A stretch of DNA of 64,000 nt from Patescibacteria group bacterium (GCA_030583705.1 CP129471.1:50506-114505), one strand, 5' to 3'. Shown: positions 45,438-49,253, numbered from the stretch's first letter. Numbers and translations are program-made. The notes: generated by a model not told the origin, from the letters alone.

Positions 45438-46214
45438 TTACTGATTATCTAAATAAGTATATCGCCCATGGCTGAGCTGATATAAACTATTAGAGACAAT
45501 TTGAAAACACGTTAAAGAAAAAACAGTGATGTGCAGCAGACAAGCTCGTATCCCTGTTTTTTCTTTCACGCTTGGAAGAAAAAAGAACTTTAAAAATTAA
45601 GATTTTTGTGCGAACAGGCGCCGATTCTAAATTCGGAAAATTCTATTTTCTATTCCTAACGCTTTTTAAGCGTTACTTGTTATGGACGGTCAAGTAAAAA
45701 ACCGCCGTTGGAAACCAACCAACTAAAAAATTACATCAGAGAGTTTGATCCTGGCTCAGGATGAACGCTGGCGATGTGTCTAAGGCATGCAAGTCGAACG
45801 CGCGTAGCAATACGCGAGTGGCAAACGGGAGAGTAACACATTGGTAACTTACCTTGAAGACGGGTATAGCTCGGAGAAATCCGAGGTAATCCCCGATAGT
45901 CATGGGGGGACATAAGTCATTCCCATGTAAATGGTCCGCCGCTTCAAGAGAGGCCTATGTTCTATCAGCTTGTTGGTAAGGTAACGGCTTACCAAGGCTA
46001 CGACGGATAGCGGGTGTGAGAGCATGACCCGCCTCACTGGGACTGAGAAACTGCCCAGACTCCTACGGGAGGCTGCAGTCAAGAATCTTCCTCAATGGCC
46101 GCAAGGCTGAAGGAGCGACATCGCGTGCAGGAGGAAGCCCTTCGGGGTGTAAACTGCTTTTCTCTGGGAAGAAACAATGACGGTACCAGAGGAATAAGGG
46201 GTTGCTAAACTCGT

Positions 46215-47112
46215 AAAATAAAATTTAGCAGTAAACCTTGTATTATCGGAGTGCGACTCTTAACGGTAACGTTAAGATGCATAACTCGGCTTATATGCTG
46301 GGAACTCTAACCACGTTAATAATCTGCTGTTTAGTGGTTAGACAATCAGCAGGGAAGTTGTTATGATTCAGTTATGAATATTAGTTTAACACAAAGACAA
46401 AGATCAATTGTCATCGGCAATATTTTAGGTGATGGTTATTTGGATTTTAATGGTTTTCGCGGAACCAGGCTTCAAATGAAGCAGTCTAAAAATTATAAAA
46501 TGTATATTTTTTGGCTTTATCGTGAATTCTTTAATATATGCAAAGATCATCCCAAAGCAAGACCTGATGGTAGTCAATGGTTTTTCGGTACAAGATACCT
46601 AGATGAGCTAACAGAATTAAGGCAACGATTTTATAACATTTCAGGTAAAAAAATCGTTCCCAATGAGATCGGTAAAATTTTAACCGACCCTCTTTCTTTA
46701 GCTGTTTGGTATATGGACGACGGAACATTGGACTGGAGACTTAAAGATCATTATGCTTTCAGTTTAGCCATCAATTGCTTTTCTCTATCGGAAGCGGCAA
46801 TGTTATCCAATACATTGCTCTGTAATTTTGATATTAAAACAACTGTGCAAAATCCTTTGTGCAGAGGTAAAAGATATCCAAGATTATACATAGGCAAAAC
46901 CGGCAGAGATAAATTTTTGTCTTTAATAAAACCTTATATGGTTTCTTGTTTTAACTATAAATTACCTCCTCATAATTAACCCCTCAGAGACTGATCCTTA
47001 AGTGGAGAGATAGCGGTACTTCAACTATGTTGAAAATCAATCTGCCGCTATAAAACGCCGGGCATCCTATTTTTATAGGATGGTGATATAGTCCAATTGG
47101 CAATATTTATTG
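46215..47112 (+). mobile_element. group I-type intron in 16S rRNA inserted inside the universal 515F site (after E. coli ~516), carrying a LAGLIDADG ORF
   Basis: Exon GCTAAACTCGT^GCCAGCAGCAGCGGTAATAC; 5' exon ends U, intron ends G; shares 'atatgctgggaactc' and 'acaatcagcagg' elements with 23S intron 1. Confidence 0.65.
46374..46979 (+). CDS. double-motif LAGLIDADG homing endonuclease (intron-encoded)
   Basis: 'IGNILGDGYLD' and 'LAVWYMDDGTLD' motifs. Confidence 0.75.
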   Translation: MNISLTQRQRSIVIGNILGDGYLDFNGFRGTRLQMKQSKNYKMYIFWLYREFFNICKDHPKARPDGSQWFFGTRYLDELTELRQRFYNISGKKIVPNEIGKILTDPLSLAVWYMDDGTLDWRLKDHYAFSLAINCFSLSEAAMLSNTLLCNFDIKTTVQNPLCRGKRYPRLYIGKTGRDKFLSLIKPYMVSCFNYKLPPHN

Positions 47113-47989
47113 GCCAGCAGCAGCGGTAATACGAGTACCCCAAGCGTTATCCGGATTTATTGGGCGTAAAGCGTGCGTAGGCGGTTTATAACATCTCTTG
47201 TTAAATCCCAAGGCTCAACCTTGGGGCTGCGGGAGATATGGATAAACTAGAGACTGGGAGAGGCAAGCGGAATTGCTGGTGTAGGGGTTAAATCCGTTAA
47301 TATCAGCAGGAACACCAAAAGCGAAGGCAGCTTGCTAGAACAGTTCTGACGCTCAGGCACGAAAGCGTGGGGAGCGAAAGGGATTAGATACCCCTGTAGT
47401 CCACGCCGTAAACGATGGATGCTGAGCATTGGGAGTTTCGACCCTCTCAGTGCTGTCTATCTAAGTTAACACCTTAAGCATCCCGCCTGGGGAGTACGGC
47501 CGCAAGGCTAAAACTCAAAGGAATAGACGGGGACCCGCACAAGCGGTGGAGCATGTGGTTTAATTCGACATTAAGCGAGGAACCTCACCAAGGTTTGACA
47601 TATAGCTGCAGACCCCTGGAAACAGGGGAGCCTTCGAGGGTGCTATACAGATGCTGCATGGTTGTCGTCAGCTCGTGTTGTGAAATGTACCGTTAAGTCG
47701 GGAAACGAGCGCAACCCCTACCCTATGTTTTACGTGTCATAGGGGACTGTCTGCTTTAAGCAGGAGGAAGGTGGGGATGACGTCAAATCAGCATGGTTCT
47801 TACACCTTGGGCGACACACGTGCTACAATGGGAAGTACAAAGGGACGCCAAACCGTAAGGTGGAGCAAATCCCAAAAAACTTCTCTCAGTTCGGATTGAG
47901 GGCTGCAACTCGCCCTCATGAAGCTGGAATCGCTAGTAAACGCGGATCAGCCATGCCGCGTTGAATACGTTCTCGGGTCTTGTACTCAC

Positions 47990-48878
47990 AATAAAAGCGC
48001 CGGGCAGTTTAATGGAGAAGATTGTTTATAACATATCTTCTTATAATCCAAGGAGTTAAAATCTCCTCCTCCGTATCGTCTACGGAGAGTAGTTGAAGGA
48101 TAGTCGTCAATCGTGAGGTTGGCGGTGAAGGATCCGGAAACAAATTTTAGTCCGACATAAAAACGGTCGCATCGACTTTTGAATAGGTGGTGAGCAAAAG
48201 GAAGATGCCAAGCCAAGACCGGTTGGAATGAAAGGAATGGAACATTAAATGACCCCGGGAGATCTTGCGCTGTCTTATTTGTATGTTATTATATAAATAA
48301 GTAAAGAAACTTACGCAGCGTAAGAAGTCAGCTGAATCATAGTACCTCGTTTTTCGAGGGAAGGATTCACTCAGTGCATATGGAATTAGAGACAAATTAC
48401 ATTGTCGGTTTGGTTGACGGAGAAGGAAGTTTTACGGTTTACGTAAAAGATCCGGATTCCGTTAAGCAAGTTAAGAGGCGAACAAAAGTTGAGCCGAGAT
48501 TTTTTATTAAGCTAATTGAGAAAGATAAAGAAATTCTTTTTCAGCTTAAAAAATATTTTGGTTGCGGTAATGTTTATTTTCAAAAAGACAACCGCTTAAA
48601 TCATCGTAATTGTTATCGCTATGAAGTATCGAATAGACAAGATTTGTTTAATATTATAATTCCTTTTTTCGAAAGTAACGTTTTGAAGTTACGCTCAAAA
48701 CGTGGTGACTTCGAAATTTTTTGCAGAATTATGAAGATGATACAGAATAAAGATCATCTAACAGATTCTGGCTGGTATAAAATATACCGGCTTAAGCAAA
48801 AAATGCATTAGAGCTCGCGTAGTGCGGGAAATCCGCTCGCTACGTGGGAACATCAATTTACAGTTTCGTAAAGATAAT
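47990..48878 (+). mobile_element. second intervening sequence in 16S rRNA at ~E. coli 1397-1400 (inside 1392/1406 universal region), carrying LAGLIDADG ORF; boundaries approximate
   Basis: 'cttgtactcac' and 'cgcccgtcacacca' separated by ~890 nt; boundary does not obey simple U/G group I rule so exact ends uncertain. Confidence 0.5.
48374..48811 (+). CDS. single-motif LAGLIDADG homing endonuclease (intron-encoded)
   Basis: 'IVGLVDGEGSFTVYV' motif; 145 aa (I-CreI-like size). Confidence 0.7.
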   Translation: MHMELETNYIVGLVDGEGSFTVYVKDPDSVKQVKRRTKVEPRFFIKLIEKDKEILFQLKKYFGCGNVYFQKDNRLNHRNCYRYEVSNRQDLFNIIIPFFESNVLKLRSKRGDFEIFCRIMKMIQNKDHLTDSGWYKIYRLKQKMH

Positions 48879-49253
48879 CGCCCGTCACACCAAGAGAGTC
48901 GGAGGCACCCGAACCCGCTATTGGAGCGGGGAAGGTGAAATCGATGATAAGGGTGAAGTCGTAACAAGGCATCCGTAGCGGAAGCTGTGGATGGATCACC
49001 TCCTTTCTAGGGAGAATTGTCCGCCTTAATTTAAGGTATGGACATGGTCGGCTAATCAACGCTCCGGTTACCGGAGATAGATTGGCAGAGAAACTTGAAT
49101 TGGCGCCTGTTCGCACTGAAATTAAAGCCAGCTGTTTTGTTTTACAAGACAGTCTTTTGGCTTACAAATAGTTTATGGGCCTATTTGTTTTTCAACAAAA
49201 AAAGACCGGCTTGTAAGAAAGGTCTTTTTTTGTTAGAATAAAAATTGCTTTTT

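Follow-up and report, generated by a model that had tools for sequence, protein, structure and literature searches.

Insertions in the ribosomal RNA (rRNA) genes of Candidate Phyla Radiation (CPR) bacteria, first detected by Brown et al. (as cited in PMC11270868), are found in 48% of CPR 16S and 82% of CPR 23S genes, in genomes that usually carry one 16S gene (Tsurumaki et al. 2024, J Bacteriol, PMC11270868). CPR group I introns commonly encode LAGLIDADG_1, _2 or _3 proteins, the LAGLIDADG_2 proteins encoded in group I insertions including 43 in 16S genes, and endonuclease activity has been demonstrated for one insertion-encoded LAGLIDADG enzyme (PMC11270868). The same survey describes 53 group-II-like insertions in CPR 16S genes, only at position 1400: 39 of the 53 encode a LAGLIDADG_1 protein, and none a reverse transcriptase. 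Here we analyse a 16S gene on the plus strand of a 64,000-nucleotide stretch of DNA from an ultra-small bacterium of this lineage, a Patescibacteria group bacterium (GCA_030583705.1, CP129471.1:50506-114505; hereafter ‘the window’, to which all positions refer). We conclude with high confidence that this gene holds two mobile self-splicing introns, one of group I and one of group II, each encoding a LAGLIDADG homing endonuclease (LHE; LHE1 in intron 1 and LHE2 in intron 2). The gene structure, the families of the two open reading frames (ORFs), ribozyme folds backed by covariation, homology to known families and CPR-wide recurrence are all known from this analysis.

A second described system, to which we return at the end, is the rns-1396 (S1396) group IIC-LHE intron of Thiomargarita and relatives (Salman et al. 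2012; Liu et al. 2026, PMC13190283). Liu et al. define group II-LHE families by insertion site plus whole-intron homology, and their survey holds one bacterial family, every listed member of which sits at 1396: Table S4 gives 62 rns-1396 members, hosted by Thiomargarita, Thiopilula, Thiophysa and Marithioploca, by an uncultured bacterium and, in several entries, by the CPR. Without exception the 62 interrupt GUACA|CACCGC (A1396|C1397), and the loops of their exon-binding sequence 1 (EBS1) all contain GUGUAC. The family is marked by a 5′ terminal linker, present in all members, by a single-motif LHE in domain IV and by the lack of EBS2; in related families, such 5′ linkers are tied to a non-canonical domain VI and to hydrolytic splicing (PMC13190283).

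In the window, the Rfam model of bacterial small-subunit rRNA (SSU; RF00177) matches the plus strand in two pieces, 45741-46248 (409.9 bits, model positions 9-546) and 46914-48044 (819.4 bits), and the 3′-terminal ~130 nt of the gene, beyond a further gap, were identified by sequence (CGCCCGTCACACC...GGATCACCTCCTTTCT). Exon 1 ends ...AACTCGT (...GCTAAACTCGT) at 46214; exon 2 starts with GCCAGCAGCAGCGGTAA at 47113 and ends ...TTGTACTCAC (...CTTGTACTCAC) at 47989; exon 3 starts with CGCCCGTCACACCA at 48879. Sliding either junction would cost universally conserved rRNA bases. Exon-1 ACUCGU (46209-46214) is complementary to exon-2 ACGAGU, and helix 18 is restored once the exons are ligated. A preliminary description of this DNA had split the gene by introns at 46215-47112 and ~47990-48878, with one double-motif and one single-motif LAGLIDADG ORF and ~1.48 kb of exons. 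The exon sequence and RF00177 bear out these positions to the base, Pfam places the two ORFs in LAGLIDADG_2 and LAGLIDADG_1, and the exons add up to 482 + 877 + 128 = 1487 nt. The same description had taken the insertions for introns and not for expansion segments, which agrees with the complete ribozyme folds and with the guides paired to the exon ends that we describe below. The coordinates of all features are collected in Table 1.

Table 1. Features of the interrupted 16S rRNA gene; positions are those of the window.
Feature	Position	Strand	Support or remark
16S rRNA gene, three exons and two introns	45733-49006	+	Rfam RF00177 matches; 3′ end from sequence
Exon 1, E. coli ~1-516, ends ...ACUCGU	45733-46214	+	RF00177 alignment, sequence
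Intron 1, group I, 898 nt, U516/G517	46215-47112	+	first base A, last base G
Internal guide sequence GCGA	46253-46256	+	pairs with exon UCGU (46211-46214) to give P1, U.G wobble at splice site
Group I core, 5′ half	46257-46364	+	alignment of 17 homologues; P3/P4 pair counts
P2	46257-46277	+
P3, 5′ strand	46285-46290	+
P4, 5′ strand	46297-46301	+	P element UAUAUGCUGGGAAC
P5	46306-46342	+
P4, 3′ strand	46346-46350	+	Q element AAUCAGCAGGGAAG
P6, 5′ strand	46351-46364	+
Intron-1 ORF (LHE1), 201 aa, double-motif LAGLIDADG_2, in loop L6	46374-46979	+	Pfam 1.4e-32
Group I core, 3′ half (including P6 3′ strand)	46972-47112	+	alignment; weak Rfam Intron_gpI match 46901-47113 (17.1 bits)
R element / P7, 5′ strand	46985-46993	+	CAGAGACUG
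P7.1/P7.2 region	46994-47053	+	P7.2 at 47009-47053
P3, 3′ strand	47057-47062	+
P8	47063-47082	+
S element / P7, 3′ strand	47088-47094	+	AUAGUCC
P9, ends in terminal G	47094-47112	+
Exon 2, E. coli ~517-1399, ends ...GUACUCAC	47113-47989	+	sequence, RF00177
Intron 2, group II (IIC-like) with LHE, 889 nt, C1399/C1400	47990-48878	+
5′ linker AAUAAAA (47990-47996) and GCG (47997-47999), replacing GUGYG	47990-47999	+	kept in 15 relatives and T. nelsonii
Domain I; EBS1 GGUGAG (48189-48194) in loop of stem 48176-48200	48000-48258	+	11 helices with compensatory changes
Domain II	48259-48329	+	covariation
J2/3 AGCU	48330-48333	+
Domain III	48334-48368	+	covariation
Intron-2 ORF (LHE2), 145 aa, single-motif LAGLIDADG_1, domain IV	48374-48811	+	Pfam 9.8e-18
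Domain V: CGC triad 48816-48818, invariant G.U, 2-nt bulge 48837-48838, apical loop GAAAU	48814-48848	+
Domain VI (helix 48852-48875) and 3-nt tail AAU	48852-48878	+	7 of 8 pairs with compensatory changes
Exon 3, E. coli ~1400-1542	48879-49006	+	sequence; blastn to relatives

Both insertions recur elsewhere at the same sites. The 15 genome loci with the intron-2 enzyme all belong to CPR or unclassified metagenome-assembled genomes, and in all 15 of these loci, found through the enzyme, the intron lies at GUACUCAC|CGCCCG; it occupies the same junction in seven further metagenome loci that were fetched for intron 1 and are hence independent of the intron-2 enzyme. Relatives of intron 1 were found by scanning metagenomes with the intron-1 enzyme, the exon patterns used to locate them being widened to include GCCAGCAGGAGCGG exons. 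A homologous intron is present at the same U516/G517 site in at least 27 fetched loci (several of them near-duplicates) and in none of the genome loci fetched through the intron-2 enzyme. Five other fetched loci (L021, L029, L030, L035 and L036) carry both introns in one gene, L029 and L030 having identical intron boundaries and ORF. The nearest 16S among the fetched loci, that of L001 (JAKAFD010000005, 88.7% identity), has intron 2 and lacks intron 1. Since dozens of independent contigs hold the same elements in the same two positions, the insertions are neither due to chance nor an assembly artefact. rRNA genes are, to be sure, a classic source of metagenome misassembly, and foreign intron sequences could in principle have been joined into the 16S gene as a chimera. 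However, once the insertions are taken out the 16S sequence is perfect at both junctions, the gene lies within an 870-kb contig, the LHE2 protein is 100% identical on 12 other contigs and five independent loci show the two introns together in the same way; this recurrence across independent contigs excludes misassembly, to which we assign next to no probability.

Intron 1 is classed as a group I intron on the strength of its core: in an alignment of 17 ORF-trimmed copies the elements P (UAUAUGCUGGGAAC), Q (AAUCAGCAGGGAAG), R (CCCCUCAGAGACU) and S (GAUAUAGUCC) are all present. The intron begins after U and ends ...UUAUUG, with the terminal G at 47112. Read at the homologous position GG(C/U)GC... 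directly before P2, the P1 guide covaries with the exon in relatives (CCUCGU/GCGAGG, CUCUGU/GCAGAG, AAUUCUGU/GCAGAAUU, CUACGU/GCGUAG and ACGU/GCGU, as compared to UCGU/GCGA in the window); the longest-match guide sites in L020, L024, L029, L036 and L047 lay at non-homologous positions and were discarded. P3, a helix of 6 base pairs (bp), has compensatory changes at several positions (CUCGGC/GCCGGG, CUCAAC/GUUGAG, UUUGGC/GCCAAA and CUUCGC/GCGAAG), and a U:A pair of P4 switches to G:C among homologues. Comparison with L017 and others gives P4 as GCUGG/UCAGC and P5 as UCUAACCAC/GUGGUUAGA, with CUGCUG in loop L5; CUGCUG/CAGCAG as P4, which would need an impossible interleaving with CUAACCAC/GUGGUUAG, is ruled out by the same comparison. 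In splicing, the guide would pair with the last bases of exon 1, exogenous guanosine would attack at the U.G wobble of the splice site, and the terminal G would then position the 3′ splice site for exon ligation.

Between P7 and P3′, most homologues have a pair of hairpins, which L041 and L055 lack, and P7.2 covaries by eye. Extra P7.1/P7.2 helices at this place are the mark of subgroup IA, a criterion that reportedly goes back to Michel and Westhof in 1990. By this informal comparison, the hairpins suggest that intron 1 may belong to the subgroup. Just upstream of the P1 bases there is also a second complementarity between exon and intron: the intron-1 segment UUUAGCAG (46224-46231) is complementary to exon-1 UUGCUAAA (46202-46209), and the same complementarity extends to 10 bp in L047. 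This pairing may be an extra exon-binding helix that replaces the P1-loop hairpin of other homologues.

LHE1 spans the whole 168-position profile of Pfam LAGLIDADG_2 (1.4e-32) and carries the motifs ILGDGYL and WYMDDGTL; these two LAGLIDADG motifs indicate that it would act as a monomer. It has more than 554 relatives in metagenomes. LHE1 also matches I-SceI, encoded in the group I intron of the yeast mitochondrial 21S rRNA, over its full length (residues 6-198 to I-SceI 30-225, E 3.6e-11). The two proteins share this full-length alignment and the two motifs; however, the hosts differ, and the target of I-SceI lies in large-subunit rRNA while that of LHE1 would be 16S position 516. The homologues share one group I ribozyme and one 16S site, yet their homologous LAGLIDADG_2 ORF is found in two alternative places: in loop L6 (the window and L017-L036) or downstream of P7′ to the 3′ splice site (L040-L048 and L055). 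ORF and ribozyme have evidently not always moved together.

Intron 2 is, as judged by its predicted fold, a group II intron of an LHE-carrying, IIC-like lineage. The preliminary description had noted that this insertion breaks the rule of a 5′-exon U and an intron-terminal G, and both this observation and its ends were correct, but the class and the exact ends that it had left open are now settled: the intron is of group II, with its ends set by pairing of EBS1 with intron-binding sequence 1 (IBS1), and because it is of group II the group I rule does not apply. The comparative evidence is strongest at the 3′ end, where domains V and VI align without gaps across the family. In domain V a lower helix of 10 bp is topped by an upper one of 4-5 bp; its 15 pairs are paired in 99.6% of cells, and five of them show compensatory changes. 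Domain VI has 3+5 bp with an invariant unpaired AA on the 5′ strand. Taken together, the two domains have 98.8% of cells paired, compared to 34-51% in controls with the partners slid by 1-3 columns, and 12 of the 23 pairs show compensatory changes. Upstream, a large domain I closed by CCGGG/CCCGG is followed by domain II, J2/3 and domain III. The 86 pairs of domains I-III are paired in 95.4% of cells (34-47% in slid controls), and 68 of them show compensatory changes (13-26 in slid controls); none of 500 shuffles came up to these values. The alignment thus supports a six-domain architecture, domains I to VI, with the ORF within domain IV; this sole ORF of intron 2 encodes the LAGLIDADG_1 enzyme, and the intron holds no reverse transcriptase or maturase, like the minority of group II introns already described with an LHE. 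EBS1, GGUGAG, sits in the loop of a covarying stem, and is invariant within the family and complementary to exon CUCAC|C, the last base being the first of exon 3; this pairing fixes the 5′ splice site at the position given by the rRNA alignment. At the 3′ end the intron reads ...GAUAAU, and 14 of the 15 family members end in AU (L007 ends in UU).

Several further observations concern the family and its hosts. In domain V the third triad pair (48818/48844, alignment columns 10:36) covaries perfectly with the bulge (48837-48838, columns 29-30): it is C:G when the second bulge base is C (10 sequences) and U:A when the bulge is AG (five sequences). The sequences are related, so that perhaps only one or two independent events are involved. 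A base triple between bulge and triad is known from the structure of the O. iheyensis group IIC intron, and the covariation fits it. In domain I, a 31-nt hairpin at 48014-48044 (GGAGAAGAUUGUUUAUAACAUAUCUUCUUAU) is present in the window copy only and absent from 14 relatives and T. nelsonii. The L077 locus has the exon motif TTGTACTCAC twice (at 834 and 1661, ~830 nt apart), first followed by the group II intron and then by unrelated sequence; the doubling may come from duplication of the target, from a nested element or from misassembly. Finally, L007 carries, in addition to the 1399 intron, a group I intron at 1389-1628 (45.5 bits), ~70 nt downstream and near the 3′ end of the gene, and its two introns show how densely such 16S sites are colonised.

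How would intron 2 splice? EBS1 would hold the exon CUCAC, domain V with its CGC triad and 2-nt bulge would supply the catalytic site, and after a first step by hydrolysis the intron would leave as a linear molecule, not as a lariat. At the first position of the intron we did not find GUGYG: the intron starts AAUAAAAGCGCC, and only GCG is kept after the 7-nt linker. Nor does the 3′ strand of domain VI bulge out an adenosine as a branch point: this strand is fully paired in the covariation-supported fold. Since a linker stands in for GUGYG and domain VI has no bulged adenosine, and since the 5′ linkers of related families go with a non-canonical domain VI and hydrolytic splicing (PMC13190283), the first step is most probably hydrolysis. 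Alternatively, intron 2 might branch, or might depend on a protein cofactor (the LHE as maturase, or a host factor), and so not self-splice by hydrolysis. Invariant unpaired adenosines, namely the AA on the 5′ strand of domain VI and those of the 3′ tail, would lend themselves to this, but the basal helix of domain VI covaries, and both the paired 3′ strand and the behaviour of related linker-bearing families speak for hydrolysis. We therefore regard branching or a cofactor requirement as unlikely, though well worth keeping in mind.

The ORF of LHE2 opens with a GTG start 8 nt after GGAAGGA, and the protein has the single motif GLVDGEGSF; lodged in domain IV, it would take the place of the usual reverse transcriptase. 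It has 1715 homologues at E <= 1e-5 and matches each half of enzymes of the I-OnuI/I-SmaMI/I-LtrI type, down to 2.3e-30; presumably LHE2 acts as a homodimer. Both introns would spread as DNA: their endonucleases would cleave 16S alleles that lack the intron, at its insertion site, and the intron would be copied in during repair.

Against the reading of the two insertions as mobile self-splicing introns weigh several points. We infer the splicing of both from DNA sequence and not from RNA, and the activity, specificity and dimerisation of the endonucleases likewise; given the missing GUGYG and branch-point adenosine, the same goes for the chemistry of the first step in intron 2. P1 of intron 1 has just 4 bp and its P10 is weak, and some relatives are plainly degenerate, among them L016, where the R/P7/P3′ portion of the group I core is gone. 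The Rfam intron models score low as well. Window intron 1 reaches 18.7 and 17.1 bits with Intron_gpI (RF00028, gathering score 50). Intron 2 reaches 31.7 bits with group-II-D1D4-1 (48294-48366, gathering score 35) and 27.5 bits with D1D4-3 (gathering score 32), and the Rfam search gave no match to Intron_gpII (RF00029) in the window. For intron 1 the low score is explained by the ORF in loop L6, which splits the core; where the core is uninterrupted, as in the homologues L055 (54.4 bits) and L041 (51.1 bits), the gathering score of Intron_gpI is exceeded. Four relatives of intron 2 exceed the gathering score of D1D4-1 with 36.6-41.4 bits, and domain V of L015 scores 29.4 bits with Intron_gpII (gathering score 40).

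Low scores of this kind could also be expected if the insertions were expansion or intervening sequences, either kept in the mature 16S or cut by RNase III without re-ligation; intervening sequences processed by RNase III are known in bacterial 23S and thought to be present in the CPR at other sites (PMC11270868). We consider this very improbable. Both insertions have complete, covariation-supported ribozyme architectures, their guides (the internal guide sequence and EBS1) pair exactly with the exon ends, and they sit in conserved functional cores, the 530-loop helix and the decoding centre, and not at the tips of variable helices. Moreover, according to Brown et al., as cited in PMC11270868, such insertions are removed from CPR transcripts.

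The short P1, the weak P10 and the missing GUGYG and branch adenosine could, on the other hand, be signs of decay: one or both introns may be non-splicing relics, and the 16S gene a pseudogene or crippled. Decay does occur among relatives. Many of these have frameshifted ORFs, and the protein nearest to the intron-1 enzyme (71% identity) is encoded in the L016 locus (Ga0075920_128), in an intron of ~735 nt from which the R element, P7, P7.1/P7.2 and P3′ are gone, apparently a degenerate, non-splicing copy. (The L016 16S also has another ~1-kb insertion further downstream.) In the window copies, however, every core element is in place and both ORFs are intact and of full length, and the oddities of intron 2 are conserved traits of its family, with covariation across 15 genomes, not private lesions. 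Furthermore, CPR bacteria usually have one 16S gene (PMC11270868), and a dead copy would therefore be lethal. We leave decay a slim chance and retain the reading of two functional introns.

The position of the introns has practical consequences, since both lie inside universal primer sites, as the preliminary description had stated. That the organism would thereby evade V4 surveys was an overstatement. Of the 515F site (GTGYCAGCMGCCGCGGTAA), intron 1 displaces only the two 5′-most bases; the 17 3′-terminal bases are contiguous in exon 2, with one internal mismatch (GCAGCAGCGG as compared to GCMGCCGCGG) that is the exon’s own and has nothing to do with the intron. The 806R site (ATTAGATACCCCTGTAGTCC) is preserved and the stretch from 515F to 806R is free of introns, and by this match intron 1 alone would not predict V4 drop-out. 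The 1392R/1406R site is split 8/7 by intron 2, and U1396 adds a mismatch; primers of the 1392R/1406R type should fail on this 16S gene. Near-full-length products of the 27F-1492R type would be ~3.3 kb long. Annotation is affected as well, as standard rRNA finders break the gene up: Rfam gave two partial matches and missed exon 3.

Just upstream of the 16S gene lies an SMC gene (42664-45327), whose next-closest relatives, Ca. Falkowbacteria included, are 63-65% identical. Downstream there is a tRNA cluster (Ile-GAT, Met, Phe, Pro and Gly, at 49255-49671), not the 23S gene: 16S is unlinked from 23S-5S, which is located ~25 kb upstream on the same strand (16529-20861 vs 45733-49671). The 23S gene (16529-20679, plus strand) measures 4151 nt as compared to the 2925-nt model, has group-I-like Rfam matches at 18691-19062 (18.2 bits), 19158-19353 (35 bits) and 19457-19740 (42.4 bits), and contains an ORF (18798-19373) for a 191-aa single-motif LAGLIDADG protein (YYLAGFTDGEGSF); its excess length, these matches and the ORF point to a 23S gene that is intron-rich too.

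How does the locus compare with what has been described? A 16S gene with two such introns is genuine but already known, as a documented habit of the CPR lineage, and the locus is a textbook-quality example of CPR rRNA genes riddled with homing-endonuclease introns. Intron 1 shares with the CPR group I introns at sites 16IS5 and 16IS10 (PMC11270868) the group I ribozyme, the LAGLIDADG_2 ORF and the location in a highly conserved 16S region. Intron 2 is a member of 16IS9 (PMC11270868), from which it differs in no substantive way: both have a CPR host, position 1400, partial Rfam group II matches and a single-domain LAGLIDADG_1 enzyme, and both lack a reverse transcriptase. In that survey 16IS9 was classed by (partial) matches to Rfam intron models, whereas the six-domain fold is worked out here. 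For the 1399/1400 element, the present analysis contributes the full fold backed by covariation, EBS1 and the linker, the want of a branch point in domain VI, and the homology to rns-1396 together with the shift in site. Intron 2 bears on a question from Tsurumaki et al. 2024, that of the kinship of CPR, sulfur-bacterial and fungal LHE group II introns. Group II introns in fungal mitochondrial rRNA (Toor and Zimmerly 2002; Li et al. 2011, as cited in PMC13190283) are like it in several respects: they too lie in an rRNA gene, encode an LHE where a reverse transcriptase would be usual, have additional nucleotides ahead of the 5′ consensus and possess a non-canonical domain VI, and the enzymes most similar to LHE2 are the fungal mitochondrial ones of the I-OnuI/I-SmaMI/I-LtrI type. 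The fungal introns have, however, IIB1 backbones, are mitochondrial and mostly encode double-motif enzymes, while intron 2 is bacterial, small, IIC-like and single-motif.

The comparison with rns-1396 was made with the T. nelsonii intron, represented by a ~400-nt 5′ seed (FR690945; Liu 2026 Table S5) that covers domains I-III. Over 344 aligned columns of domains I-III, window intron 2 is 54% identical to this seed, and the two have the following motifs in common, in the same order: the linker with GCGCC.GGCAG, GAAGGAU, CAAAU..AGUC and the EBS1 stem-loop, and further GGAAUG, AAAUGACCC.GGGA.AUC and GAAGUCAGC.GA.UC.UAGUA. They agree in the ribozyme backbone, in the single-motif LHE in domain IV, in the target at the 16S decoding centre and in a 5′ linker before GCGCC (AAAUAAAU there and AAUAAAA in the window). 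The N-terminal sequence of the LHE reads GFVVGEGCF in rns-1396 as compared to GLVDGEGSF in the window. The main difference is in the site, A1396|C1397 (GUACA|CACCGC) for rns-1396 and C1399|C1400 (GUACUCAC|CGCCCG) for the window intron, 3 nt downstream. The EBS1 loops, UGUGUAC and GGUGAG, each fit their own site, so that EBS1 loop and insertion site change together between the two forms. Placing the 5′ splice site of intron 2 at 1396 was considered and rejected: the 3′ junction has no CAC, so that three universal bases would be missing from the mature rRNA, and EBS1 pairs with CUCAC. From these alignments, window intron 2 is homologous to rns-1396 and yet not a member of it under the definition by site plus homology.

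The base at 1396 itself differs among hosts. All 22 of 22 hosts of the 1399 form have U1396 (GUACUCAC), which pairs with the A of EBS1 (the hosts listed are L001-L015, L021, L029, L030, L035, L036, L073, L077 and the window); intron-less genes in the same sample have either U (L017/18, L024, L075 and L094) or A (L043 and L048). U1396 could be a precondition for intron 2, or could have been co-converted during homing. We consider it an evenly balanced proposition that the abundant C1399|C1400 intron of the CPR is a distinct, site-shifted sister family of rns-1396, with the same backbone, a remodelled EBS1 and, as its 5′ linker and branch-less domain VI would suggest, obligate hydrolytic splicing; under this proposition EBS1 GGUGAG may grip the exon 3 nt downstream, together with the U1396 typical of the CPR. 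In this way intron 2 bears on how LHE-carrying group II introns change their target: if the proposition is true, the 1399 form is an unlisted 14th family next to those of Liu et al., and illustrates how a group II intron has switched, in nature, from one target site to its neighbour.

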